Shown here piece by piece: positions 28,706 to 40,600 of a stretch of 64,000 nt of DNA. Each line of letters starts with the position of its first letter. The stretch's first letter is position 1. Both the position numbers and the translations under genes were made by a program. The stretch is from Escherichia coli (GTDB lineage: Bacteria > Pseudomonadota > Gammaproteobacteria > Enterobacterales > Enterobacteriaceae), in the NCBI RefSeq assembly GCF_024700885.2, contig NZ_CP117016.1. One strand, written 5' to 3'. The notes under the pieces were generated by a model. That model saw only the letters and a program-made list of their open reading frames with translations. It searched no databases and had not been told where the DNA came from.

Positions 28706-29305
28706 ATGCGTAAATTATGTGCTGTTATTCTGTCCACAGTAGTCTGGCTGGTCGCCGCTGGTACGCCAGCGAGCGCAGCAGAGCATCAGTCCACACTAAG
28801 CGCCGGGTATCTTCAGACCCATACTGATATGCCCGGCAACGATGACCTGAAGGGCATTAACGTGAAATACCGTTATGAATTTACGGACACGCTGGGGCTG
28901 GTGACGTCATTCAGTTATGCCAATGCCAAAGATGAGCAAAAAACGCATTACAGCGATACCCGCTGGCATGAAGATTCAGTGCGTAACCGCTGGTTCAGCA
29001 TGATGGCGGGGCCGTCTGTACGCGTGAATGAATGGTTCAGTGCTTATGCGATGGCAGGTGTGGCTTACAGCCGTGTTTCGACTTTTTCCGGGGATTATCT
29101 CCGCGTAACTGACAGCAAGGGGAAAACGCACGATGTGCTGACCGGAAGTGATGACGGTCGCCACAGCAACACGTCTCTGGCGTGGGGGGCTGGCGTGCAG
29201 TTTAACCCGACCGAATCCGTGGCCATTGATATTGCTTATGAAGGCTCCGGCAGTGGTGACTGGCGCACTGACGGTTTCATCGTGGGTGTCGGTTATAAAT
29301 TCTGA
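28706..29305 (+). CDS. lom: Lom outer-membrane protein (Ail/Lom family)
   Basis: Signal peptide then beta-barrel pattern, C-terminal aromatic residue (GVGYKF). Confidence 0.8.
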   Translation: MRKLCAVILSTVVWLVAAGTPASAAEHQSTLSAGYLQTHTDMPGNDDLKGINVKYRYEFTDTLGLVTSFSYANAKDEQKTHYSDTRWHEDSVRNRWFSMMAGPSVRVNEWFSAYAMAGVAYSRVSTFSGDYLRVTDSKGKTHDVLTGSDDGRHSNTSLAWGAGVQFNPTESVAIDIAYEGSGSGDWRTDGFIVGVGYKF

Positions 29306-29331
29306 TTAGCCAGGTAACACAGTGTTATGAC

Positions 29332-29358
29332 AGCCCGCCGGTTCAGGCGGGCTTTTTT
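29332..29358 (+). terminator. Rho-independent terminator after lom
   Basis: AGCCCGCCggttcaGGCGGGCT followed by TTTTTTG. Confidence 0.6.
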
Positions 29359-29369
29359 GTGGAGTGGAT

Positions 29370-31769
29370 ATGGCAGCAGTAAAAATCTCAGGTGTGCTGA
29401 AAGATGGTGCGGGAAAACCAATACAGAACTGCACTATTCAACTGAAGGCAAAGCGTAACAGCACCACGGTACTGGTGAACACGGTGGCCTCTGAAAATCC
29501 TGATGAAGCCGGGCGTTACAGCATGGATGTTGAGTATGGCCAGTACAGCGTCACCCTGCTGGTTGAAGGTTTTCCGCCTTCACATGCCGGGACCATTACC
29601 GTCTATGAAGGCTCCAGACCAGGTACGCTGAATGATTTTCTCGGTGCCATGACGGAAGATGATGTCATGCCGGAGGCATTGCGTCGTTTTGAGGCAATGG
29701 TGGAAGAAGTGGCACGCAACGCCGAAGCCGCCTCTCAGAGCGCAGCGGCGGCAAAGAAATCCGAAACTGCAGCGGCATCATCAAAGAACGCGGCGAAAAC
29801 CTCAGAAACGAATGCAGCTAATAGTGCACAGGCGGCAGCGACCTCAAAGACTGCATCGGCAAACTCCGCGACAGCAGCCAAAAAATCAGAAACCAACGCG
29901 AAAAATAGCGAGACAGCCGCAAAGACGAGCGAAACCAACGCAAAGTCCAGCCAGACGGCAGCGAAAACCAGCGAAACGAATGCCAAAGCCAGTGAAACTG
30001 CGGCAAAAAACAGCCAGGTTGCAGCAGCCCAAAGCGAGAGCGCGGCAGCCGGTTCTGCGACTTCAGCAGCTGGATCAGCAACTGCTGCGGCTAACAGCCA
30101 GAAAGCTGCGAAGACGAGTGAAACTAACGCAAAGTCCAGCCAGACGGCAGCGAAGACCAGCGAAACGAATGCCAAAACCAGCGAAACTGCGGCGAAAAAC
30201 AGTCAGGATGCAGCAGCCCAAAGCGAGAGTGCCGCAGCTGGTTCTGCAAGTGCGGCGGCTTCTTCTGCCACTGCATCAGCCAACAGTCAAAAAGCTGCAA
30301 AAACCAGTGAAACCAACGCAAAGGCGAGCGAGACTGCGGCGGCTAACTCGGCGAAAGCATCCGCTGCAAGCCAGACGGCAGCTAAAGCAAGTGAAGATGC
30401 AGCCAGAGAGTACGCAAGCCAGGCTGCGGAGCCGTATAAACAAGTTTTGCAGCCGCTTCCCGATGTGTGGATACCGTTTAACGATTCACTGGATATGATT
30501 ACGGGCTTTTCGCCGTCATATAAAAAGATTGTTATTGGTGATGATGAAATAACGATGCCTGGCGATAAGGTTGTAAAGTTTAAACGCGCATCAACTGCCA
30601 CATATATCAATAAATCAGGCGTATTTAGTGTTGCTAAAATTGATGAGCCACGATTTGAAAAAGAAGGTTTATTGATTGAAGGACAGCGCACTAACTATTT
30701 TGTTAAATCCAATATCCCCGCTGAATGGACGAGTACCAGCAATATCGATAAAACTAATAATGGTGTTGATGAATTTGGTTTTTCATATGCCAAAATGCGA
30801 ACAAAAGATAATATGACAGGACAATCATCTGCACTTAGTCTGCATACATGCAGTGCATCCCGGGGGATTGATGTTAGTGGCGATAATAAGTATTGCACTG
30901 TTTCATGCAGGGTTAAAGCTCCTGATGGTCTTCGTTGTCGTTTGCGTTTTGAAAAATACGATGGGTCGGTTTATACATTTTTAGGAGATGCTTATTTAAC
31001 TTTCGGAACTCTGATAATAGAAAAAACTGGCGGAGCAGCCAATAGAATAGCAGCTACTGCAACTAAAGATCCGGTTACAGGGTGGATTTTCTATGAGGCA
31101 ACTATAGAAGCTGTTGAAGGTGAAACCTTAATTGGCGCAATGATTCAGTATGCGCCGAAAAAAGGTGGTGTAACTGAAGCGGGAGATTATATTTACCTTG
31201 CAACACCACAATTTGAAAACGGCGGATGTGCTTCATCTTTTGTTATTACGACAACTGTACCCGCAACCCGCTCCAGTGATATGGTGACGATCCCAACTGA
31301 AAATAATATCTATAATAGACCGCTTACGTGCCTGGTCGAGGTTAATAGAAATTGGGGCGATATTCCTCCTAATGTAGCACCGCGTATTTTTGATTTTTCT
31401 GGTGTGCCACCTATTGAGTCAATTACATACGCTTTTAACACAACTGAGAAATATTACGGTCAGCTTTATATGCAAACTTATAAAGCGTCGACAAGTACTT
31501 ACGTTTCTAGTGTGTTTGCTGGTCGAACTGATGTTCGAAAATTCATTGGTGGTTTTAATATTTATTCTGATGGTACTAAACGAGTAGTTTCTAACGGTGA
31601 GGCTACTAAAACTATGAAAACGGAGTGGACGGGCGTAAAAACACGGACCTTTATTCGAATTGGAGGTCAAGCCACATCGGGAACTCGTCATCTATTCGGC
31701 CATTTGAGAAATCTTCGTCTCTGGCATAAAGAATTAACTGATGCGCAAATGGGGGAGAGTATTAAATGA
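29370..31769 (+). CDS. Side tail fibre protein with repetitive Ala/Lys/Thr/Ser shaft and low-GC C-terminal domain
   Basis: N-terminal conserved tail-fibre start (AAVKISGVLKDGAGKPIQNCTIQLKA); repeats AAKTSETNAK; C-terminal ~400 aa markedly AT-rich. Confidence 0.7.
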   Translation: MAAVKISGVLKDGAGKPIQNCTIQLKAKRNSTTVLVNTVASENPDEAGRYSMDVEYGQYSVTLLVEGFPPSHAGTITVYEGSRPGTLNDFLGAMTEDDVMPEALRRFEAMVEEVARNAEAASQSAAAAKKSETAAASSKNAAKTSETNAANSAQAAATSKTASANSATAAKKSETNAKNSETAAKTSETNAKSSQTAAKTSETNAKASETAAKNSQVAAAQSESAAAGSATSAAGSATAAANSQKAAKTSETNAKSSQTAAKTSETNAKTSETAAKNSQDAAAQSESAAAGSASAAASSATASANSQKAAKTSETNAKASETAAANSAKASAASQTAAKASEDAAREYASQAAEPYKQVLQPLPDVWIPFNDSLDMITGFSPSYKKIVIGDDEITMPGDKVVKFKRASTATYINKSGVFSVAKIDEPRFEKEGLLIEGQRTNYFVKSNIPAEWTSTSNIDKTNNGVDEFGFSYAKMRTKDNMTGQSSALSLHTCSASRGIDVSGDNKYCTVSCRVKAPDGLRCRLRFEKYDGSVYTFLGDAYLTFGTLIIEKTGGAANRIAATATKDPVTGWIFYEATIEAVEGETLIGAMIQYAPKKGGVTEAGDYIYLATPQFENGGCASSFVITTTVPATRSSDMVTIPTENNIYNRPLTCLVEVNRNWGDIPPNVAPRIFDFSGVPPIESITYAFNTTEKYYGQLYMQTYKASTSTYVSSVFAGRTDVRKFIGGFNIYSDGTKRVVSNGEATKTMKTEWTGVKTRTFIRIGGQATSGTRHLFGHLRNLRLWHKELTDAQMGESIK
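29740..30330. repeat. Coding tandem repeats in tail fibre gene
   Basis: Two imperfect ~200-bp tandem units (about 29920-30110 and 30122-30310) plus shorter ~24-bp sub-repeats encoding AAKTSETNAK. Confidence 0.6.
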
Positions 31770-32047
31770 AAGATTTAACACTCAAATTTGCAGACAGGGC
31801 CGACTTTTCGGCCTTTATGGAGAGTATTGGCTATTATGATGACGAGTCGATGCAGGATGATATTCTTATTGACGTGATAGGTAACGTGTACAAAGAAACC
31901 GGAGAACTGACTGAAGATGGCGAACCGGTATGTGTTAAGGAAGACGGATATTTTGTAAACGTGCGCATCATTAATGATGTGAAAACACCGTCAATATTCG
32001 ATGAATACGTGGTTGCTGTTGAGCATCAACTTCGTGGCTGGATGTGA
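31766..32047 (+). CDS. Hypothetical acidic protein in tail-fibre module
   Basis: 93-aa ORF, start overlaps stf stop, AT-rich. Confidence 0.3.
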   Translation: MKDLTLKFADRADFSAFMESIGYYDDESMQDDILIDVIGNVYKETGELTEDGEPVCVKEDGYFVNVRIINDVKTPSIFDEYVVAVEHQLRGWM

Positions 32048-32056
32048 GGAAGAAAA

Positions 32057-32761
32057 ATGGCTACATCGACAGTAATTCCAGGAGATATCACCACGCTAAA
32101 GGGAGATGTCAGTAAAACTAAGGAAGATATTTCCTCAATTAACGGAAAAGTATCAACGCTTCAGACTGATATGACCAGTGCAAAGCAGGATATCAGCACC
32201 AGATACACAAAAACTGAAGTTGATAATAAGCTGAAAAACAAAGTGGAAGTGAACGATCTGGAAAGTGGTCGTTATGGCGGAGATTTTTATCCACTGACAG
32301 GTCGTGAAGCGTTTTATTTATGGAATTTGGCCACGACTACAGCGGCGGCAAACCTTTATCTTAATCCTGACCCCGCAATTTCGTCTGTGCTGCGGTCAAC
32401 ATCGTCTATCCGCTATAAACATTCAGTAGAGACAATAGATTCAGAGCACGCTGATCTCATTTTCAGGATGCGCCCTGTGTGGTACAGGTCACAATGCGAA
32501 AATGACAGGCGTGACTGGGGATTCTACGGATTGATTGCCGAGGAAGTAGGAGAAATTGCCCCTCAGTTTGTACACTGGCGACCAGCTAACGAAGATGATG
32601 CTCCTGAAGCTATTTCCAGCAATGGCCTTGTTGCCGAAGGTGTAATGTACGAACGTCTGGTTGTTCCACTGATTCACCATATCCAGAAGCTGACTGAAAG
32701 AGTTGATGAACTTGAGTCAGAATTAAAGTTGTTATTAACTTCCCGAAGCGATATCGGATAA
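32057..32761 (+). CDS. Tail-fibre-type protein with S74-like intramolecular chaperone domain
   Basis: N-terminal coiled coil then S74-like segment (SSIRYKHSVETID...MRPVWY...DWGFYGLIAEEVGEIAPQFVH...LVAEGVMYERLVVPLIHHIQKL). Confidence 0.5.
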   Translation: MATSTVIPGDITTLKGDVSKTKEDISSINGKVSTLQTDMTSAKQDISTRYTKTEVDNKLKNKVEVNDLESGRYGGDFYPLTGREAFYLWNLATTTAAANLYLNPDPAISSVLRSTSSIRYKHSVETIDSEHADLIFRMRPVWYRSQCENDRRDWGFYGLIAEEVGEIAPQFVHWRPANEDDAPEAISSNGLVAEGVMYERLVVPLIHHIQKLTERVDELESELKLLLTSRSDIG

Positions 32762-32771
32762 AGGAGGAATA

Positions 32772-33059
32772 ATGGATATAACACCTTTCCTTCATGCACT
32801 TTGTGCTGTGGCTGCGCAGGTACTGGTTGGTCTTTTTACCGGAAACTGGGCTTACGGGGCGATAGCCGGTTGTACGTTCTTCATTGCGCGTGAACACACC
32901 CAGGCAGAATATCGCTGGATCGAAATGTTCGGGCATGGCAAGCGAATGAATATGCCGTGGTGGGGCGGTTTTGATACACGTGCATGGGATGTGGCAAGCC
33001 TGATGGATTTTGCTGTGCCGGTGGTGGCGTGTCTGCTGATCTGGCTGTTGATCCGTTAA
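32772..33059 (+). CDS. Small membrane protein, unknown function
   Basis: 95 aa with 2-3 hydrophobic segments; RBS AAGGAGG. Confidence 0.3.
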   Translation: MDITPFLHALCAVAAQVLVGLFTGNWAYGAIAGCTFFIAREHTQAEYRWIEMFGHGKRMNMPWWGGFDTRAWDVASLMDFAVPVVACLLIWLLIR

Positions 33060-33061
33060 AT

Positions 33062-33110
33062 ATAAAAAGCCGCAGTAACTTGCCATGGCAGGATACTGCG
33101 GCTGGTTTGT
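33062..33110. terminator. Bidirectional terminator between tail-fibre module and RT gene
   Basis: 10-bp stem AGCCGCAGTA/TACTGCGGCT (33068-33103) with A-run before and T-rich run after. Confidence 0.45.
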
Positions 33111-33166
33111 GAGTTTAAATAGTGTGTTTATTGCGGTATATTTAAAGGACTTAATGGATTACATAT

Positions 33167-34537
33167 CTATGATATTCCTGAGATATCCTCTTCAAGCTCT
33201 TTTACTGATTTCGCAATTTTAAATTTAAACTTCCTCTCTATTTCACTATTGCTAAGTTTTTTTTCCTTCTCTTTACCTATCCACATAGAAACAAGTTCTC
33301 GTTTCTGAGATATATGTAAATTATCAAAGTTAGGTATGTATTTAAAAGTCTCCGCTCTACCTCTGCGGAGTTCATAGAAAGTTTTAATCAAAGACTTTGG
33401 TTTTATTTCTGATGAAAGGCCGAATCGGTGGATAAGATTATTGATAGTATGATTAACAGAGCGAAGTTGAGCTGTTGAGGTTATTTGTGAGAAGTACGAT
33501 ACCCATCCCAATCGTTTACCTTCAAACACACATCCCGTAATTCTGAGATTTAGTTTCCACTGACAATATGCAACAGCTCGTTCTTTATCACGCTTACTTT
33601 TAGCTTGTAGTAGAGCGTGCCTGTATGCAGTAAAAATCCTTGCTAAAGATGACTCAAATCTAAGAATGCTCTCATGTTTTATCAATAATTCTCGATTTTC
33701 TATGTGGTATCCCAAAAAGTTAAAACTTTCATCCAAGCTGCCTACTTTGGATTTTGAGTTCTCTTCATTTAATGGATGTGGGTTTAAATTTAATGATTGA
33801 AGCTTATCAATGATATGAGAAGCTATTTTTGTTGCTTGATATTTTGGTGTTAAAATAAGAATGTCATCAACGTATCGCATGTACCATATGTCATGCATTT
33901 TATTGATTTCATCATCAAAATTAGATAGTGATATTTCAGCTAAAATGTTTGATATCGCTAATCCCTGAGGTACCCCTCTGGTATTATTCGGGATACCTTT
34001 GCTTCCTGTTGTTCCACTTACAGTAGGCACGATTAATGATGATGTTATTAACTGTCTAATTTCTTTTTTTCTAATTTTATTTTTTATTGTATTAATTATC
34101 AATTTATGTTCAATTGAAGGATAGAAACTTTTAAGATCTATTTTTGCATATTCAGCATAAAGACTGCTGTTTAATGCTTCTTTCAATGAGTCAATTACTG
34201 TATGTGGTAGTTTTAATCTGGAGTTAGGATATATTTCCGTAAGGCATTCACAGAGAGTTCTAAGAGTAATTCTGTCCCTAGCAGTTGGTATGGAAATCTG
34301 TCTGGGTGTAGAGTTAGCGCCTTTAGATATTAATTTTTCTTTATATGCTGTAAATTTGTAATTGCCAGAGTTAACCTTTTCAAAAATGAAAGCGATCTCA
34401 TTTTTTATTGTCAAATCAAGTTTTGATGGGCGAATCCGATCTATGCCAATCGCTCCTGATTCTTTGATTTTTTCAGTGTATACTTTTAGAAGGTTTTTTT
34501 TCGAGAATGACTTTTTAAAAATTCTGCTTGCAGTCAT
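33167..34537 (-). CDS. Reverse transcriptase (defence-associated type, unclassified)
   Basis: Ordered RT motifs: RQISIPTARDRITLRTL, KIDLKSFYPSIEH, GVPQGLAISNILAEISLS, YMRYVDDILIL, FNFLGYHI; ~30% GC; alternative TTG start at 34543. Confidence 0.8.
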   Translation of the reverse strand: MTASRIFKKSFSKKNLLKVYTEKIKESGAIGIDRIRPSKLDLTIKNEIAFIFEKVNSGNYKFTAYKEKLISKGANSTPRQISIPTARDRITLRTLCECLTEIYPNSRLKLPHTVIDSLKEALNSSLYAEYAKIDLKSFYPSIEHKLIINTIKNKIRKKEIRQLITSSLIVPTVSGTTGSKGIPNNTRGVPQGLAISNILAEISLSNFDDEINKMHDIWYMRYVDDILILTPKYQATKIASHIIDKLQSLNLNPHPLNEENSKSKVGSLDESFNFLGYHIENRELLIKHESILRFESSLARIFTAYRHALLQAKSKRDKERAVAYCQWKLNLRITGCVFEGKRLGWVSYFSQITSTAQLRSVNHTINNLIHRFGLSSEIKPKSLIKTFYELRRGRAETFKYIPNFDNLHISQKRELVSMWIGKEKEKKLSNSEIERKFKFKIAKSVKELEEDISGIS

Positions 34538-35066
34538 AGTCAATCCAAAGATATATTAATGGGAGTATATAAAGGGCGGCAGTAGTAAATATTCGAAGTA
34601 ATATCCATAAAATAACAATTATTTTTTCTTTTTGTGTGGGGATCCTCGTCGTAAGTCCAACTTGAGTTACCCTTGAAATTTTATCATCTATGTCACGGTG
34701 ATTCTCAACCTCATTGAGCAAATTAAAATATTTTTCTTTCTGTTCAAGAGTTAACTGTTGACTGGTGGTAATGTCAAAATAGAGTCGCTGTAGTGCAATA
34801 TAATTCCTTCTCATGGCTATTGCTCGACCACGAAAATCTAGGTTAGATACGATCAGCGAAATACCCAGTAGGGCCACCGAAAGTATTGCCGCAACGATAT
34901 CTGTGTTATCTCCTAGAACTTTTGGAAATCGCAACGTTACAATTGAAAGTACCGCACTCAATATAGCATACCAAACGAGGATAAATTGAGAGTGCTTTTC
35001 AAGCCATTCTAGTCGATGGTGCGCTTGGATACGGGCTTTATATGTAAACCAAATATTGTCATGCAT
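34515..35066 (-). CDS. Small multi-TM membrane protein, candidate effector partner of RT
   Basis: 183 aa; hydrophobic helices FILVWYAILSAVLSIVTL, IVAAILSVALLGISLIVSNL, IIVILWILLRIFTTAALYILPLIYLWI; 3' end overlaps RT start; RBS AAGGA. Confidence 0.6.
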   Translation of the reverse strand: MHDNIWFTYKARIQAHHRLEWLEKHSQFILVWYAILSAVLSIVTLRFPKVLGDNTDIVAAILSVALLGISLIVSNLDFRGRAIAMRRNYIALQRLYFDITTSQQLTLEQKEKYFNLLNEVENHRDIDDKISRVTQVGLTTRIPTQKEKIIVILWILLRIFTTAALYILPLIYLWIDYDCKQNF

Positions 35067-35288
35067 AAAAGATCCTTTTTAAAAGCGGAAGGGGCAGGAT
35101 ATATTGGAATCATTGAACATCCTGCCCGGCAGGATCAGTGAGCATAAGCTCAACAGTAAAATATTACTGTTCATTATCAGAGCCGCCCTTGCATGCACAA
35201 GAGGAAAAACCTGCCCCATCCTTTTGAATTATTACAATTTAATGATCTTAAAGTCAATACAAGTGAATGGTGTCCAGAGATGATGAAC
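35067..35288 (-). promoter_or_regulatory. Structured leader upstream of membrane-protein/RT operon
   Basis: Three copies of GGGGCAGG/CCTGCCCC in alternating orientation; hairpin ending ~25 nt before start codon. Confidence 0.3.
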
Positions 35289-35537
35289 TTAATGAACAAA
35301 CCACTCGTCAGCAGACTCCCAGGTATCTTTCAGAGTTTCCTGAACAAAAGTTTTAGCTGAATCTTTATCGGCGGTGCGCGTAACAGAAAGGCCATCGTTG
35401 CTGGTGGCTTTTACGATCACCTCTACATCGTCATAACGCTTACTGATGCGTCGAGTTAATTCTTCCTTTAACGCATCCACAGCACCGCTTGGCATTTTAG
35501 TCATTTTCTCTTTAGCTATGCAGATCTCAATACGCAT
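35289..35537 (-). CDS. DinI-like protein
   Basis: 82 aa; MRIEI...AKEK...LPAGA-DAL--EL-RRI...[10 protein letters not shown] pattern of the DinI family. Confidence 0.75.
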
Positions 35538-35550
35538 AAAAATCCCTCTA

Positions 35551-35598
35551 CACTGTGTTTGTATACAGTGTTATTTTTAACTGTATGAATAAACAGTG
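35551..35598 (-). promoter_or_regulatory. Two tandem LexA (SOS) boxes in dinI-like promoter
   Basis: CACTGTgtttgtatACAGTG (35551-35570) and AACTGTatgaataaACAGTG (35579-35598), both CTGT-N8-ACAG, 14-61 nt upstream of the start codon. Confidence 0.6.
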
Positions 35599-35617
35599 TC
35601 AATAGAACAAAGATTGC

Positions 35618-35740
35618 TGCATGTACAAATGTTCTTTGGCTACAAATACACCTACTGATCATGTTCTGCTATGCTCTGATACCTCCAAAATGTACAATCA
35701 GCGGCATGAATTTTTCTTTGTACATATGATTGTACATAAT
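35618..35740. repeat. TGTACA hexamer array in phage-derived prfC upstream region
   Basis: TGTACA at 35622, 35691, 35719, 35731; last two as direct repeat TTGTACATA separated by 3 nt. Confidence 0.4.
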
Positions 35741-35756
35741 TAAAGAGACAACAATT

Positions 35757-35830
35757 ATGACAAGCCTTTTGGCCGCAGAGGTAGCGAAAAGAAGAACCTT
35801 TGCAATTATTTCTCACCCGGACGCCGGTAA
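35757..35830. other. Inferred attR / prophage-chromosome junction within 5' end of prfC
   Basis: prfC N-terminus reads [15 protein letters not shown], differing from the canonical RF3 N-terminus as I recall it, then converges on conserved sequence. Confidence 0.4.
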
Positions 35831-37343
35831 GACTACCATCACCGAGAAGGTGCTGCTGTTCGGACAGGCCATTCAGACCGCCGGTACAGTAAAAGGCCGT
35901 GGTTCCAACCAGCACGCTAAGTCGGACTGGATGGAGATGGAAAAGCAGCGTGGGATCTCCATTACTACTTCTGTGATGCAGTTTCCGTATCACGATTGCC
36001 TGGTTAACCTGCTCGACACCCCGGGGCACGAAGACTTCTCGGAAGATACCTATCGTACCCTGACGGCGGTGGACTGCTGCCTGATGGTTATCGACGCTGC
36101 AAAAGGTGTTGAAGATCGTACCCGTAAGCTGATGGAAGTTACCCGTCTGCGCGACACGCCGATCCTCACCTTTATGAACAAACTTGACCGTGATATCCGC
36201 GACCCGATGGAGCTGCTCGATGAAGTTGAGAACGAGCTGAAAATCGGCTGCGCACCGATCACCTGGCCGATTGGCTGCGGCAAGCTGTTTAAAGGCGTTT
36301 ACCACCTTTATAAAGATGAAACCTATCTCTATCAGAGCGGTAAAGGCCACACGATTCAGGAAGTCCGCATTGTCAAAGGGCTGAATAACCCGGATCTCGA
36401 CGCTGCGGTTGGTGAAGATCTGGCACAGCAGCTACGTGACGAACTGGAACTGGTGAAAGGCGCGTCTAACGAGTTCGACAAAGAGCTGTTCCTTGCGGGC
36501 GAAATCACTCCGGTATTCTTCGGTACTGCGCTGGGTAACTTCGGCGTTGATCATATGCTGGATGGCCTGGTGGAGTGGGCCCCTGCGCCGATGCCGCGTC
36601 AGACTGATACCCGTACCGTAGAGGCGAGCGAAGACAAATTTACCGGCTTCGTATTTAAAATTCAGGCCAACATGGACCCGAAACACCGCGACCGCGTGGC
36701 GTTTATGCGCGTGGTATCCGGTAAATATGAAAAAGGCATGAAGCTGCGCCAGGTGCGCACTGCGAAAGATGTGGTGATCTCCGACGCGCTGACCTTTATG
36801 GCGGGTGACCGTTCGCACGTTGAAGAAGCGTATCCTGGCGATATCCTTGGTCTGCACAACCACGGCACCATTCAGATCGGCGACACCTTTACCCAGGGTG
36901 AGATGATGAAGTTCACCGGTATTCCGAACTTCGCACCAGAACTGTTCCGTCGTATCCGCCTGAAAGATCCGCTGAAGCAAAAACAGCTACTCAAAGGGCT
37001 GGTACAGCTTTCCGAAGAGGGCGCGGTGCAGGTGTTCCGTCCGATCTCCAACAACGATCTGATCGTTGGTGCAGTTGGTGTGCTGCAGTTTGATGTGGTG
37101 GTAGCGCGTCTGAAGAGCGAATACAACGTTGAAGCAGTGTATGAGTCAGTCAACGTTGCCACTGCCCGCTGGGTAGAATGTGCGGACGCGAAGAAATTCG
37201 AAGAGTTCAAGCGTAAGAACGAAAGCCAACTGGCGCTTGATGGCGGCGATAACCTCGCTTACATCGCTACCAGCATGGTCAACCTGCGCCTGGCGCAGGA
37301 ACGTTATCCGGACGTTCAGTTCCACCAGACCCGCGAGCATTAA
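35757..37343 (+). CDS. prfC: Peptide chain release factor 3 (RF3), 5' end phage-supplied
   Basis: 528 aa; GTPase G1 motif [17 protein letters not shown]; full-length RF3. Confidence 0.9.
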
Positions 37344-37354
37344 TTCTTGCCTCC

Positions 37355-37379
37355 AGGGCGCGGTAGCCGCTGCGCCCTG
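37355..37379 (+). terminator. Candidate prfC terminator hairpin
   Basis: CAGGGCGCggtagccgctGCGCCCTG immediately after stop. Confidence 0.4.
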
Positions 37380-37735
37380 TCAATTTCCCTTCCTTATTAG
37401 CCGCTTACGGAATGTTCTTAAAACATTCACTTTTGCTTATGTTTTCGCTGATCTCCCGAGCGGTTTCAAAATTGTGATCTATATTTAACAAAGTAATGAC
37501 ATTTCTGGCGGCGTTAAATACCGTTCAATGCGTAGATATCAGTATCTAAAGCCGTCGATTGTCATTCTACCGATATTAATAACTGATTCAGAGGCTGTAA
37601 TGGTCGTTATTCATCACCCATCGCTTTTGTGATGGCGACCATTGACTTCTGTAGAGGGTGAAGTCTCTCCCTATTCAGCAATGCAACCTCGTGTTGCCAG
37701 GCTCAAATTACGAGCAAACATACAGGAATAAATCG

Positions 37736-38341
37736 ATGACTATGACAAGACTGAAGATTTCGAAAACTCTGCTGGCTGTAATGTTGACCTCTGCCGTCGC
37801 GACCGGCTCTGCCTACGCGGAAAACAACGCACAGACTACCAATGAAAGCGCAGGGCAAAAAGTCGATAGCTCTATGAATAAAGTCGGTAATTTCATGGAT
37901 GACAGCGCCATCACCGCGAAAGTGAAGGCGGCGCTGGTGGATCATGACAACATCAAGAGCACCGATATCTCTGTCAAAACCGATCAAAAAGTCGTGACCC
38001 TGAGCGGTTTCGTTGAAAGCCAGGCTCAGGCCGAAGAGGCAGTGAAAGTGGCGAAAGGCGTTGAAGGGGTGACCTCTGTCAGCGACAAACTGCACGTTCG
38101 CGACGCTAAAGAAGGCTCGGTGAAGGGCTACGCGGGTGACACCGCCACCACCAGTGAAATCAAAGCCAAACTGCTGGCGGACGATATCGTCCCTTCCCGT
38201 CATGTGAAAGTTGAAACCACCGACGGCGTGGTTCAGCTCTCCGGTACCGTCGATTCCCAGGCACAGAGCGACCGTGCTGAAAGTATCGCCAAAGCGGTAG
38301 ATGGTGTGAAAAGCGTTAAAAATGATCTCAAAACTAAGTAA
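37736..38341 (+). CDS. osmY: Osmotically inducible periplasmic protein OsmY (two BON domains)
   Basis: [28 protein letters not shown] signal peptide, two BON repeats. Confidence 0.9.
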
Positions 38342-38467
38342 TTCGTCGTAATTCGTCCTCCCGAACTTTGTCGGGAGGCGCGATGTGCACCACACTAAAA
38401 ATATCGCATTGAGTGATTTTCACGCTCATATCAAGCGGTGACATTAACTATGGTAAAGGAGACGCTT

Positions 38468-38629
38468 ATGTTTCGTTGGGGCATCATATTTCTGGTTATC
38501 GCGTTAATCGCCGCCGCACTTGGGTTTGGTGGTCTGGCCGGTACCGCTGCAGGCGCAGCTAAAATTGTCTTTGTCGTCGGGATTATTCTGTTCCTGGTGA
38601 GTTTGTTCATGGGCCGAAAACGACCCTAG
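38468..38629 (+). CDS. ytjA: Small membrane protein YtjA (DUF1328)
   Basis: 53 aa [53 protein letters not shown]. Confidence 0.8.
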
Positions 38630-38660
38630 ATTTCAGACCATTAAGAAAATTTTATCCAAA

Positions 38661-38690
38661 GCCAGTCCAGCGGACTGGCTTTTGCGGTTT
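38661..38690 (+). terminator. Rho-independent terminator after ytjA
   Basis: GCCAGTCCagcGGACTGGC followed by TTTTGCGGTTTT. Confidence 0.6.
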
Positions 38691-38750
38691 TAGCGAATAA
38701 TAAATTGCGTTACTTTGTCATTCTTTCACAACAAAAACAGGAAGGCAGAG

Positions 38751-39824
38751 GTGGGGCAGCGAATACCTGTAACGCTTGGTAATATTGCGCCGTTGTCGCT
38801 AAGGCCGTTCCAGCCTGGACGAATAGCTCTGGTGTGCGAAGGCGGCGGACAGCGTGGAATTTTCACGGCTGGCGTGCTGGATGAGTTTATGCGCGCGCAG
38901 TTTAATCCTTTCGATCTTTATCTCGGCACATCTGCCGGGGCGCAGAACCTCTCGGCGTATATCTGCAATCAGCCCGGTTACGCGCGCAAAGTCATCATGC
39001 GCTATACCACAAAACGCGAATTTTTCGATCCATTGCGCTTTGTCCGTGGAGGAAATCTTATCGATCTCGACTGGCTGGTGGAGGCCACTGCAAGCCAGAT
39101 GCCGTTGCAAATGGATACCGCCGCGCGGTTGTTTGACAGCGGCAAATCGTTTTATATGTGCGCCTGTCGTCAGGATGACTATGCGCCGAATTACTTTTTA
39201 CCAACCAAACAAAACTGGCTGGATGTGATTCGCGCCTCCAGTGCGATACCTGGCTTTTATCGTAGCGGAGTGTCGCTGGAAGGCATTAACTACCTGGATG
39301 GCGGGATCAGTGATGCGATTCCGGTTAAAGAGGCGGCAAGGCAGGGAGCAAAAACCTTGGTCGTCATCCGCACCGTGCCGTCGCAAATGTACTACACGCC
39401 GCAGTGGTTCAAACGCATGGAACGCTGGCTGGGTGACAGTAGCCTGCAGCCGCTGGTCAATCTGGTGCAGCATCATGAAACCAGCTATCGTGACATTCAG
39501 CAATTTATTGAGAAACCACCGGGCAAACTGCGGATATTCGAAATTTATCCGCCGAAGCCATTGCATAGTATCGCGCTTGGCAGTCGGATTCCGGCGCTGC
39601 GTGAAGACTATAAACTTGGGCGTTTATGCGGTCGTTATTTCCTAGCAACGGTTGGCAAGCTATTAACTGAAAAAGCGCCGCTAACCCGCCATCTGGTGCC
39701 AGTGGTGACGCCGGAATCGATTGTCATTCCGCCTGCGCCAGTCGCCAACGATACGCTGGTTGCCGAAGTGAGCGATGCTCCGCAGGCGAACGACCCGACA
39801 TTTAACAATGAGGATCTGGCTTGA
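38751..39824 (+). CDS. yjjU: Patatin-like phospholipase YjjU
   Basis: GGGQRG and GTSAG patatin motifs; GTG start with RBS AGGAAGG. Confidence 0.8.
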   Translation: MGQRIPVTLGNIAPLSLRPFQPGRIALVCEGGGQRGIFTAGVLDEFMRAQFNPFDLYLGTSAGAQNLSAYICNQPGYARKVIMRYTTKREFFDPLRFVRGGNLIDLDWLVEATASQMPLQMDTAARLFDSGKSFYMCACRQDDYAPNYFLPTKQNWLDVIRASSAIPGFYRSGVSLEGINYLDGGISDAIPVKEAARQGAKTLVVIRTVPSQMYYTPQWFKRMERWLGDSSLQPLVNLVQHHETSYRDIQQFIEKPPGKLRIFEIYPPKPLHSIALGSRIPALREDYKLGRLCGRYFLATVGKLLTEKAPLTRHLVPVVTPESIVIPPAPVANDTLVAEVSDAPQANDPTFNNEDLA

Positions 39825-40600
39825 TTTGCCGTTTTATCGACACCCACTGCCATTTTGATTTCCCGCCGTTTAGTGGCGATGAAGAGGCCAGCCTGCAACG
39901 CGCGGCACAAGCGGGCGTAGGCAAGATCATTGTTCCGGCGACAGAGGCGGCAAATTTTGCCCGTGTGTTGGCATTAGCGGAAAATTATCAACCGCTGTAT
40001 GCCTCGTTAGGGTTGCATCCGGGGATGTTAGAAAAACATAGCGATGCATCGCTGGAGCAGTTACAGCAGGCGCTGGAAAGGCATCCGGCGAAGGTGGTGG
40101 CGGTGGGGGAGATCGGCCTGGATCTCTTTGGCGACGATCCGCAATTTGAGAGGCAGCAGTGGTTACTCGACGAACAACTGAAACTGGCGAAACGCTACGA
40201 TCTGCCGGTGATCCTGCATTCACGGCGCACGCACGACAAACTGGCGATGCATCTTAAACGCCACGATTTGCCGCGTACTGGCGTGGTTCACGGTTTTTCC
40301 GGCAGCCTGCAACAGGCTGAACGGTTTGTACAGCTGGGCTACAAAATTGGCGTAGGCGGCACTATCACCTATCCACGCGCCAGTAAAACCCGCGATGTCA
40401 TCGCAAAATTACCGCTGGCATCGTTGTTGCTGGAAACCGATGCGCCGGATATGCCGCTCAACGGCTTTCAGGGGAAGCCTAACCGCCCGGAACAGGCTGC
40501 GCGGGTGTTTGCCGTACTTTGCGAGTTACGCCCGGAACCAGAAGATGAGATTGCCGAAGTGTTGCTTAATAATACGTATGCGTTGTTTAACGTGCCGTAG
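39821..40600 (+). CDS. yjjV: TatD-family metal-dependent hydrolase YjjV
   Basis: MICRFIDTHCHFDF TatD N-terminus; TTG start overlapping yjjU stop. Confidence 0.8.
   Translation: MICRFIDTHCHFDFPPFSGDEEASLQRAAQAGVGKIIVPATEAANFARVLALAENYQPLYASLGLHPGMLEKHSDASLEQLQQALERHPAKVVAVGEIGLDLFGDDPQFERQQWLLDEQLKLAKRYDLPVILHSRRTHDKLAMHLKRHDLPRTGVVHGFSGSLQQAERFVQLGYKIGVGGTITYPRASKTRDVIAKLPLASLLLETDAPDMPLNGFQGKPNRPEQAARVFAVLCELRPEPEDEIAEVLLNNTYALFNVP

Follow-up and report, generated by a model that had tools for sequence, protein, structure and literature searches.

What occupies the 222 bp between a DinI-like gene and the operon of a reverse transcriptase (RT) in Escherichia coli? An earlier note on the DNA analyzed here, a stretch of 64,000 nucleotides that we refer to as the window, had described this spacer as a structured, GC-rich leader, and had offered several readings of it: a structured RNA serving as template or scaffold for the adjacent defense RT, an attenuator or terminator, or a protein-binding operator. 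Our analysis indicates that the spacer is very probably the noncoding RNA (ncRNA) gene of a DRT10 anti-phage system (UG17 RT plus SLATT), which a lambdoid prophage carries as cargo at its end.

The RT cassette and its prophage setting

The limits that had been given for the spacer were correct. The DinI-like open reading frame (ORF) ends at 35289 and the SLATT ATG lies at 35066, both on the minus strand, which leaves positions 35067-35288 between them (Table 1). Small ORFs of 34 to 59 aa are found inside the spacer, a region that the covarying RNA described below accounts for. The AAGGA ribosome-binding site that the note had placed ahead of SLATT can indeed be read from the sequence, and GGAG-type sites stand at the equivalent place in homologues. 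The three GC-rich elements exist as well, but their true sites are 6 to 9 nt to the right of where they had been placed. Within 129 nt (35093-35215) there are four instances of CCTGCC or its complement, compared with ~0.11 expected from the window-wide density (56 matches in 64 kb); these repeats are thus beyond chance.

Table 1. Features of the spacer and of the adjoining genes (window coordinates; ncRNA nucleotide n is position 35222-n)
Feature	Position	Strand	Sequence or basis
UG17 (DRT10) RT gene, 456 aa	33167..34537	-	ATG at 34537; PADLOC RT_UG17 2.1e-158
SLATT_5 two-transmembrane effector gene, 183 aa	34515..35066	-	PADLOC RTasSLATT 7.9e-57
SLATT ribosome-binding site	35073..35077	-	AAGGA, 6 nt before AUG; sequence reading
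DRT10 (UG17-associated) ncRNA, ~137 nt	35085..35221	-	Covariance model R1 and fold
SL1 basal stem, 3' arm, nt 124-135	35087..35098	-	CCUGCCCCUUCC; inverted repeat I2; same as GC-rich copy 1
GC-rich copy 1	35091-35100		GGGGCAGGAT; earlier note, 35083-35092
Template loop, 20 nt, nt 104-123	35099..35118	-	GUUCAAUGAUUCCAAUAUAU; predicted single stranded; unpaired in minimum free energy (MFE) and consensus folds
A-B-A' template	35103..35115	-	CAAUGAUUCCAAU; A CAAU 35115..35112, B GAUUC 35111..35107, A' CAAU 35106..35103
SL5, nt 87-103	35119..35135	-	AUCCUGC-CGG-GCAGGAU; inverted repeat I9; same as the palindrome; stem-loop that bounds the template, immediately 5' of its loop
Palindrome	35119-35135		ATCCTGCCCGGCAGGAT; earlier note, 35110-35126
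SL4, nt 71-82	35140..35151	-	GAGC-UUAU-GCUC; 95.4% paired
SL3, nt 51-70	35152..35171	-	AACAGUAA / UUACUGUU; inverted repeat I10; 100% paired among homologues
SL2, nt 19-36	35186..35203	-	CUCUUGU / GCAAGGG, GCAU loop; 98.4% paired
SL1 basal stem, 5' arm, nt 1-12	35210..35221	-	GGAUGGGGCAGG; inverted repeat I2; same as GC-rich copy 3
GC-rich copy 3	35210-35221		CCTGCCCCATCC; earlier note, 35204-35215
Promoter-like site of ncRNA	35228..35257	-	-35 TTGACT, 18-nt spacer, extended -10 TG-n-AATAAT
DinI-like ORF	35537..35289	-	

Which type of RT is encoded downstream of the spacer? The protein, annotated in RefSeq with 456 aa (WP_001542097.1), matched the PADLOC profile RT_UG17 with 525.7 bits (residues 3 to 458 on profile positions 1 to 429 of 429), whereas the second-best PADLOC RT profile, Drt3a, reached 127.1 bits. 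The Drt9 profile matched at 5.1e-20, compared with 2.1e-158 for UG17. On the NCBIfam side, the Drt2, Drt3a, Drt4, retron, and group II models all scored the RT far under their curated cutoffs (for example, 76.5 bits against a cutoff of 390 for Drt2 and 58.3 bits against 235 for the retron RT model). The product of the neighboring gene passed the NCBIfam SLATT_5 model with 132.9 bits against a curated cutoff of 60. The SLATT stop (34515) and the RT start (34537) overlap by 23 nt, and the two adjoining genes thus appear to be translationally coupled, as in DRT10. The RT carries YVDD at residue 222 and its C terminus reads ...EEDISGIS, with Ser456 as the last residue; a C-terminal serine was kept in all nine distant RT homologues (58 to 69% identity). 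Judged from the protein sequence, both the YVDD motif and the putative C-terminal priming residue of DRT10 are present. The pair of a UG17 RT and a SLATT_5 gene is a DRT10 defense system.

Does the spacer belong to this cassette or to the dinI unit? Of 5426 complete E. coli genomes, 187 contain the spacer, and 187 likewise carry at least 80% of the 2.6-kb SLATT-RT query; FDAARGOS_536, CE10, and IHE3034 are among the carriers. Some 1600 other genomes matched the DinI-like part of the query, and in sampled RT-less genomes the homology boundary fell exactly at the dinI stop codon. This loss of homology indicates that the spacer is part of the RT cassette and not of the dinI unit. The same arrangement, with the element immediately ahead of SLATT-RT, recurs in Pseudomonas, Photorhabdus, Buttiauxella, and Stutzerimonas. 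In the E. coli prophage, the cassette is placed between the lambdoid tail-fiber genes and the terminal DinI-like gene, next to prfC; the putative promoter, ncRNA, SLATT, and RT therefore move as one unit of prophage cargo. In one RT-less prophage, the same slot held a recombinase, ydfK, and a ynaM-family gene. In the 40 matches listed (sampled across the 187), RefSeq has no feature annotated under the spacer.

Position and covarying fold of the ncRNA

To follow the spacer across bacteria, we used two sources of homologues. A genome scan with the RT returned nine loci with 58 to 69% protein identity in Photorhabdus, Pseudomonas, Stutzerimonas, and Buttiauxella; in each of them, SLATT is directly preceded by a comparable element of ~130 nt. 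With a DNA pattern derived from the conserved core of the RNA, 64 further stretches were retrieved from metagenomes and viral contigs. The final alignment held 44 distinct sequences, each followed by an ORF with the SLATT motif, after removal of duplicates, one false match, and error-ridden copies. Left out were three pattern matches that lacked both SLATT and the fold (L034, L044, and L054) and four truncated or indel-ridden copies (L040, L042, L046, and L051). Because the homologues were partly gathered with the core pattern, the set is biased toward sequences that keep this core.

A covariance model (R1), built from only the 31 homologues outside E. coli and outside the two enterobacterial clades, had a single match in the 64 kb of the window. 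This match covered positions 35085-35221 on the minus strand (111.7 bits, E 2e-27) and was full length (model positions 1 to 131 of 131). R1 also recovered the enterobacterial copies at other loci. When the numbering of the published DRT10 RNA was laid on the window with C107 at 35115, nucleotide 1 fell on 35221, the first G of the 12-bp long-range stem, and nucleotide 137 fell on 35085, two nucleotides beyond the basal stem. A scan of positions 30000-40000 with Rfam release 15 at E ≤ 1 gave no match in the spacer, retron msr models included. Two weak, sub-threshold Rfam matches, isrG (within a tail-fiber gene) and CrcZ, were unrelated.

How does this RNA fold? Folded alone, the 137-nt RNA had as its MFE structure a five-stem fold at -54 kcal/mol (z = -4.66); the five-stem fold as drawn came to -50.7 kcal/mol. 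Across the 44 distinct sequences, 95.1% of the cells of the five-stem model were paired, and 20 pairs, with 154 cells, changed on both sides. None of 500 shuffles reached the observed values, and slid controls gave 46 to 54%. In the basal stem SL1, which is followed by GC and then a UUUU run, 9 of the 12 pairs changed on both sides among homologues. SL2 had three covarying pairs (CG in 23 and UA in 21 sequences; GC in 27 and AU in 17) together with a U-G pair that was invariant in 44 of 44. The second pair of SL4 alternated between A-U (17 sequences) and G-C (21 sequences). In SL5, the five outer pairs were kept, the fifth of them covarying (CG in 23, UA in 13, and UG in 8 sequences). Run unaided, RNAalifold recovered SL1, SL2, SL3, and SL5. 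In place of SL4 it drew a GGCUC/GAGC helix, which we rejected since it showed one-sided changes only, whereas the second pair of SL4 switches between A-U and G-C on both sides. The invariant U-G pair and the many G-U pairs form solely on the minus-strand transcript, so that the constraint applies to this RNA rather than to the DNA. The earlier note had looked to covariation across homologous loci to settle its claim, and the 20 compensating pairs found among the 44 sequences speak for the five-stem fold. These data revealed a basal stem that encloses four smaller stem-loops, with covariation in its support, as in DRT10. The fold depends on the transcript ends: in a 251-nt context, the MFE structure switches to an alternative pairing, the hairpin that the note had drawn (see below).

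Where might this RNA begin? A consensus scan found a promoter-like site with 10 of 12 consensus matches, plus the TG of an extended -10 element, just ahead of SL1, and the predicted transcription start lies ~7 nt past it, at ~35221. In most of the 44 loci, a -10-like hexamer (TAGAAT, TAAGAT, CATAAT, and others), mostly preceded by TG, stands 5 to 7 nt upstream of the basal stem. The match to the consensus is a plain observation, and it suggests that the site may function as a promoter. Because only 18 nt separate the 3' end of the ncRNA from the SLATT start codon, the SLATT-RT mRNA probably arises by read-through from the ncRNA promoter.

The template loop and competing readings of the spacer

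On the minus strand, the sequence around the template reads GGCAGGAU GUU CAAU GAUUC CAAU AUAU CCUGCCCC, so that two CAAU motifs flank GAUUC in the 20-nt loop that follows SL5. This A-B-A' pattern in the loop after SL5 is that of DRT10 and predicts a cDNA repeat of 5'-GAATCATTG-3'. Among the homologues, 43 of 44 sequences have an A-B-A' pattern where the loop carries its conserved UCAA...CAA, with predicted repeats of 9 to 11 nt; in 13 sequences the longest repeat in the scan was an offset 8-nt option (GUUC-AACG-GUUC). Two template alleles occur in E. coli, CAAU-GAUUC-CAAU, as in the window, and CAACGGUUCCAAU. The latter was present in all four copies sampled at 95.9 to 98.2% identity, a range that holds 154 genomes. 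Extrapolated from these four copies, most E. coli copies carry the CAACGGUUCCAAU allele, unlike the window, and the 33 genomes with at least 99% identity are taken to carry CAAU-GAUUC-CAAU. For CAACGGUUCCAAU, the A-B-A' rule would give either a repeat of 9 nt primed by CAA or one of 8 nt primed by GUUC.

Can the spacer be explained without a template RNA? The note had proposed a hairpin of GGGCAGGAU and AUCCUGCCC that closes a loop of ~18 nt and ends ~25 nt ahead of the start codon. As an inverted repeat this element holds up, with nine perfect base pairs (I3), but as a conserved fold it does not. Across the 44 homologues it was 61.3% paired, and its covariation was no better than that of shuffled or slid controls. 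In the structure that is 95% paired with 20 covarying pairs, copy 1 pairs with copy 3 to form SL1, and the palindrome folds on itself as SL5. Within the 137-nt RNA, the fold that contains the proposed hairpin reached -41.0 kcal/mol, ~13 kcal/mol less stable than the five-stem MFE structure. We conclude that the hairpin is a lineage-specific alternative pairing. Could it nevertheless act as an attenuator, or as an intrinsic terminator that insulates SLATT-RT from the SOS-regulated dinI-like gene? The perfect repeat, its presence in the MFE fold of the 251-nt context, the physical position of the RNA as the 5' leader of the operon, and the UUUU run that follows the basal stem would all suit such a role. 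Against it stand the level of pairing and covariation just described, the weaker energy, and the terminator scan of 34900-35750, which returned two sites, both on the plus strand, and no terminator-like site on the minus strand of the spacer; the note's suggestion of a terminator between the dinI-like gene and the operon fails on the same result. Homologues in other genera keep the RNA without a dinI neighbor, and the published RNA is bound by the RT and templates cDNA (PMC12632851). We consider an attenuator or terminator very unlikely.

The alternative pairing has a further possible consequence. Enterobacterial copies have a longer SL5 than the 5-bp form of Pseudomonas, and the two halves of this SL5, AUCCUGCC and GGCAGGAU, copy the arms of SL1, which makes a second fold possible for the RNA: the 5' arm of SL1 would pair with the 5' half of SL5 and the 3' half of SL5 with the 3' arm of SL1, and the template would be shut in the 18-nt hairpin loop. 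Changes in the fifth SL5 pair (columns 103/111) accompany those in the SL1 pair 15/141, and the alternative pairs 15/103 and 111/141 are therefore also mostly possible. One pair in each alternative helix (15/103 and 111/141) thus tracks the covariation of SL1 and SL5, a signal that is confounded by phylogeny (two dominant clades) and by G/C-rich runs and that may be a phylogenetic coincidence. With an alternative fold computed to be ~13 kcal/mol weaker, we regard a conformational switch as unlikely. If true, it might gate access to the template or the translocation of the repeat, or might tune read-through into SLATT-RT, possibly coupled to SOS transcription from the LexA-regulated dinI-like gene, which lacks a terminator.

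Other readings place the signal in the DNA or assign the RNA to another RT system. The palindrome ATCCTGCCCGGCAGGAT with its flanking half-sites could be taken for the operator of a dimeric regulator, as it is a perfect 8+8 palindrome with two more copies of the half-site within 130 bp. Its sequence varies, however. Copies in other genera read AUCC-loop-GGAU and differ in their inner bases and lengths, and the conserved pairing includes G-U, which on the other strand gives C-A mismatches. The conservation of G-U pairing is a constraint at the level of RNA and not of DNA, so that what is kept of the palindrome is its pairing and not its DNA sequence, and no regulator gene lies within the cassette. 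The probability of a protein-binding operator, which the note had also entertained, is practically negligible. Does the RNA instead serve a different kind of RT, as the msr-msd of a retron, the rolling-circle template of DRT2, or the poly-U template of DRT9? The RT does have weaker similarity to the Drt3a, Drt2, Drt9, and retron profiles, and the DRT10 ncRNA reportedly resembles that of DRT9 in shape (PMC12632851). UG17 is nevertheless the best profile by far (525.7 versus 127.1 bits); the NCBIfam Drt2, Drt3a, retron, and group II scores are far below their cutoffs; the template loop has an A-B-A' repeat instead of a U run; and the Rfam scan of 30000-40000 at E ≤ 1 gave no retron msr match. 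Membership among the retrons was rejected on these grounds, the long-range inverted repeat being the covarying SL1 of the DRT10 fold. The note had found no convincing retron-style a1/a2 repeats, in agreement with the retron RT score (58.3 bits versus 235) and the Rfam result. We hold it to be extremely unlikely that the spacer encodes the ncRNA of another RT system.

The DRT10 reading, its published relatives, and its meaning

The DRT10 reading bears out the first proposal of the note, that a structured ncRNA serves the adjacent defense RT as template or scaffold: the R1 match, the covariation, and the A-B-A' pattern are those of a DRT10 template ncRNA. How does the locus compare with published systems? 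Tang et al. (bioRxiv 2025, PMC12632851) tested three E. coli DRT10 systems and described the layout as ncRNA, SLATT, and RT, all three of which are required; deletion or scrambling of the ncRNA abolishes defense. In their Eco3DRT10 system, the ncRNA is 137 nt long with a large central stem and four smaller stem-loops. DNA synthesis by the RT begins on Ser456 and yields tandem GAATCATTG repeats of kilobase length, templated by an A-B-A' element of 4+5+4 nt (nt 107 to 119) in a 20-nt loop just after SL5; the 20 positions of this loop were mutagenized, and scrambling of SL5 abolished repeat synthesis (PMC12632851). The same tripartite ncRNA-SLATT-RT module was described independently by Sanchez-Nieto et al. 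(bioRxiv 2026, 10.64898/2026.04.29.721553), whose covariance models work only within subtypes. In the UG17-A system of Escherichia sp. E3659, the ncRNA is independently expressed, with SL1 essential for RNA stability, a 7-nt repeat is set by two ACU motifs, and the system is toxic without exonuclease I (SbcB) (10.64898/2026.04.29.721553). A UG17 and SLATT locus in E. coli H120 had been tied to sbcB essentiality (Mestre et al., PMC9226505).

The window shares with Eco3DRT10 an ncRNA upstream of SLATT-RT that comes to 137 nt under the published numbering; a basal stem with four small stem-loops; and, immediately following SL5, a template loop of 20 nt. It also shares the CAAU-GAUUC-CAAU template with U110, C116, A117, and U119, the same cDNA repeat, and a 456-aa RT with YVDD and a Ser456 end. 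We detected no difference between the two when comparing the features given in the text of the paper (length, template, loop size, and residue numbers), and the supplements of PMC12632851 contain close relatives of the RT with 456 aa and the same N and C termini. Identity may extend to the nucleotide level. The E3659 UG17-A ncRNA has the same tripartite layout, a basal SL1, its own promoter (in the window, the promoter-like site), and a template loop with a repeated motif (ACU...ACU), whereas it differs in its length (~143 nt), in six predicted stem-loops, and in the 7-nt repeat AGTAATA.

More distant systems share parts of this plan. The DRT9 (UG28) ncRNA, whose overall shape the DRT10 ncRNA resembles (Tang et al., PMC12632851), is likewise a structured, RT-bound RNA with a template loop and protein-primed synthesis, but a conserved poly-U tract gives it a poly-dA product, whereas the loop in the window has an A-B-A' repeat and no U run. 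Retron msr-msd RNAs also lie beside a defense RT and are reverse-transcribed by it; in the window, however, a1/a2 flanking repeats and the logic of a branched msDNA are missing, the RT is of a different type, and the ncRNA stands ahead of the effector. Telomerase RNA follows the same logic in that a short template is recopied, a downstream alignment segment (here A') repeats the start of the template, and a stable helix like SL5 forms the 5' boundary. The likeness is one of logic; the DRT10 RNA is bacterial, a protein and not a chromosome end primes the synthesis, and the product is free single-stranded DNA, used in immunity.

How would the system work in this strain? The gene families, the position of the RNA, its covarying fold, the template pattern, the promoter-like site, and the linkage of spacer and RT cassette were observed here; RT binding, serine priming, repeat synthesis, defense, and the SbcB link come from two preprints on homologous E. 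coli systems. Transcription would start at ~35221 from the putative promoter (~35257-35228, minus strand), and the first ~137 nt would fold so that SL1 (35221..35210 with 35098..35087) encloses SL2 to SL5 and the open 20-nt template loop, while read-through from the same promoter would provide the SLATT-RT mRNA. By analogy with the published systems, the RT encoded downstream would bind the ncRNA and prime DNA synthesis from its own C-terminal serine. It would copy the 9-nt CAAU-GAUUC up to a boundary set by SL5; the growing DNA would then realign by slippage on the downstream CAAU (A') for another round, giving long single-stranded (GAATCATTG)n. Exonuclease I (SbcB) of the host would restrain this repeat DNA, which is proposed to act on the SLATT membrane effector as its control when phages infect the cell.

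What does the locus mean for E. coli and for this RT family? The class of RNA is already known, having been described experimentally in 2025-26, and the window carries the same template as a published member; biologically, the locus is of a kind seen before. Among bacterial systems, DRT10 has the most telomerase-like RT-RNA pair, and its ncRNA holds both the template and the realignment signal. Our analysis annotates a probably functional RNA gene that is blank in RefSeq (in the 40 listed matches of 187 genomes) and unmatched in Rfam release 15, and the template specifies the expected DNA product exactly, (GAATCATTG)n. As in the E3659 and H120 UG17 systems, for which sbcB dependence has been reported, carriers of the cassette are predicted to depend on exonuclease I. 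Together, the putative promoter, ncRNA, SLATT, and RT make up a self-contained cargo cassette, which occupies a variable slot next to prfC where lambdoid prophages end.

Boundaries of the RT gene and matches set aside

The start codon of the RT gene differs between annotations. The mechanical ORF list begins the gene at a TTG at 34543, giving 458 aa, and RefSeq begins it at an ATG at 34537, giving 456 aa. With the ATG as the start, the published priming residue Ser456 is the last residue of the RT. Within 34515-34543, the end of the SLATT gene shares 23 nt with the start of the RT gene.

In three loci that matched the 22-nt search pattern (L034, L044, and L054), neither a SLATT gene nor the fold is present, and we therefore regard them as chance matches. 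Three metagenomic copies of the ncRNA (L042, L046, and L051, from metagenome Ga0163217) carry single-base indels throughout, which are probably sequencing errors. Separately, a weak Rfam match to isrG lies within the side tail-fibre gene; its score of 20.5 bits (E 0.034), against a gathering score of 100, is most likely due to chance.

Cargo slot of the prophage and template alleles

In prfC-adjacent lambdoid prophages, the interval from the tail-fibre assembly gene to the terminal DinI-like gene is a variable cargo slot. Here it holds the DRT10 cassette, and in E. coli 2013C-3033 the same slot is occupied by a recombinase, ydfK, and a ynaM/ynfT gene. The FDAARGOS_536 genome is identical to the window across query 33100-35700. 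Its Lom-family gene and tail-fibre N-terminal gene are both annotated by RefSeq as pseudogenes with frameshifts, and the prophage may therefore be defective, although the defence cargo is intact.

Coordinates of features in the window
Feature	Position	Strand	Source
isrG match	30220-30441	minus	Rfam
Cargo slot with DRT10 cassette	about 33060-35288
Pseudogenes of FDAARGOS_536 (Lom-family, tail-fibre N-terminal)	L001 1610-4670 = window about 28706-31769		RefSeq
LexA-box-like sites, CTGT-N8-ACAG (CTGTGTTTGTATACAG, CTGTATGAATAAACAG)	35553-35568 and 35581-35596
Promoter-like site of DinI-like gene	35602..35573	minus

Two template alleles are present in E. coli. The window carries CAAUGAUUC at 35107-35115, with a 4-nt homology between the repeated template segments A and A'. 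The other, CAACGGUUC, offers a 3-nt homology (CAA) or an 8-nt GUUC option. Four copies were sampled from the range of 95.9-98.2% identity, which comprises 154 of the 187 genomes, and all four carry this second allele. The predicted cDNA repeats would differ between the two alleles.

Possible alternative pairing and possible read-through from the DinI-like gene

An SL5 stem of 7 to 8 bp occurs in enterobacterial clades only, and the halves of this extended SL5 (35119-35135) repeat the SL1 arms (35087-35098 and 35210-35221). Across the family, the fifth SL5 pair and one SL1 pair change in step (alignment A1 columns 15, 141, 103, and 111, corresponding to 35212, 35096, 35131, and 35123). Since the two pairs track each other, the alternative pairings are largely possible (80% for 15/103 and 98% for 111/141 in A1). 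The joint change may be a phylogenetic artefact or may reflect a second conformation.

The earlier note had assumed that the DinI-like gene is SOS regulated. This is probably right, because both LexA-box-like sites overlap the promoter-like site of the gene in the window sequence. No terminator-like site was found on the minus strand of 35222-35288, the stretch that separates the stop codon of the DinI-like gene from the ncRNA promoter, and therefore SOS-induced transcription from the DinI-like gene could reach the ncRNA and SLATT-RT. In such a 5'-extended RNA, the alternative fold that was obtained on folding 251 nt would be favoured.
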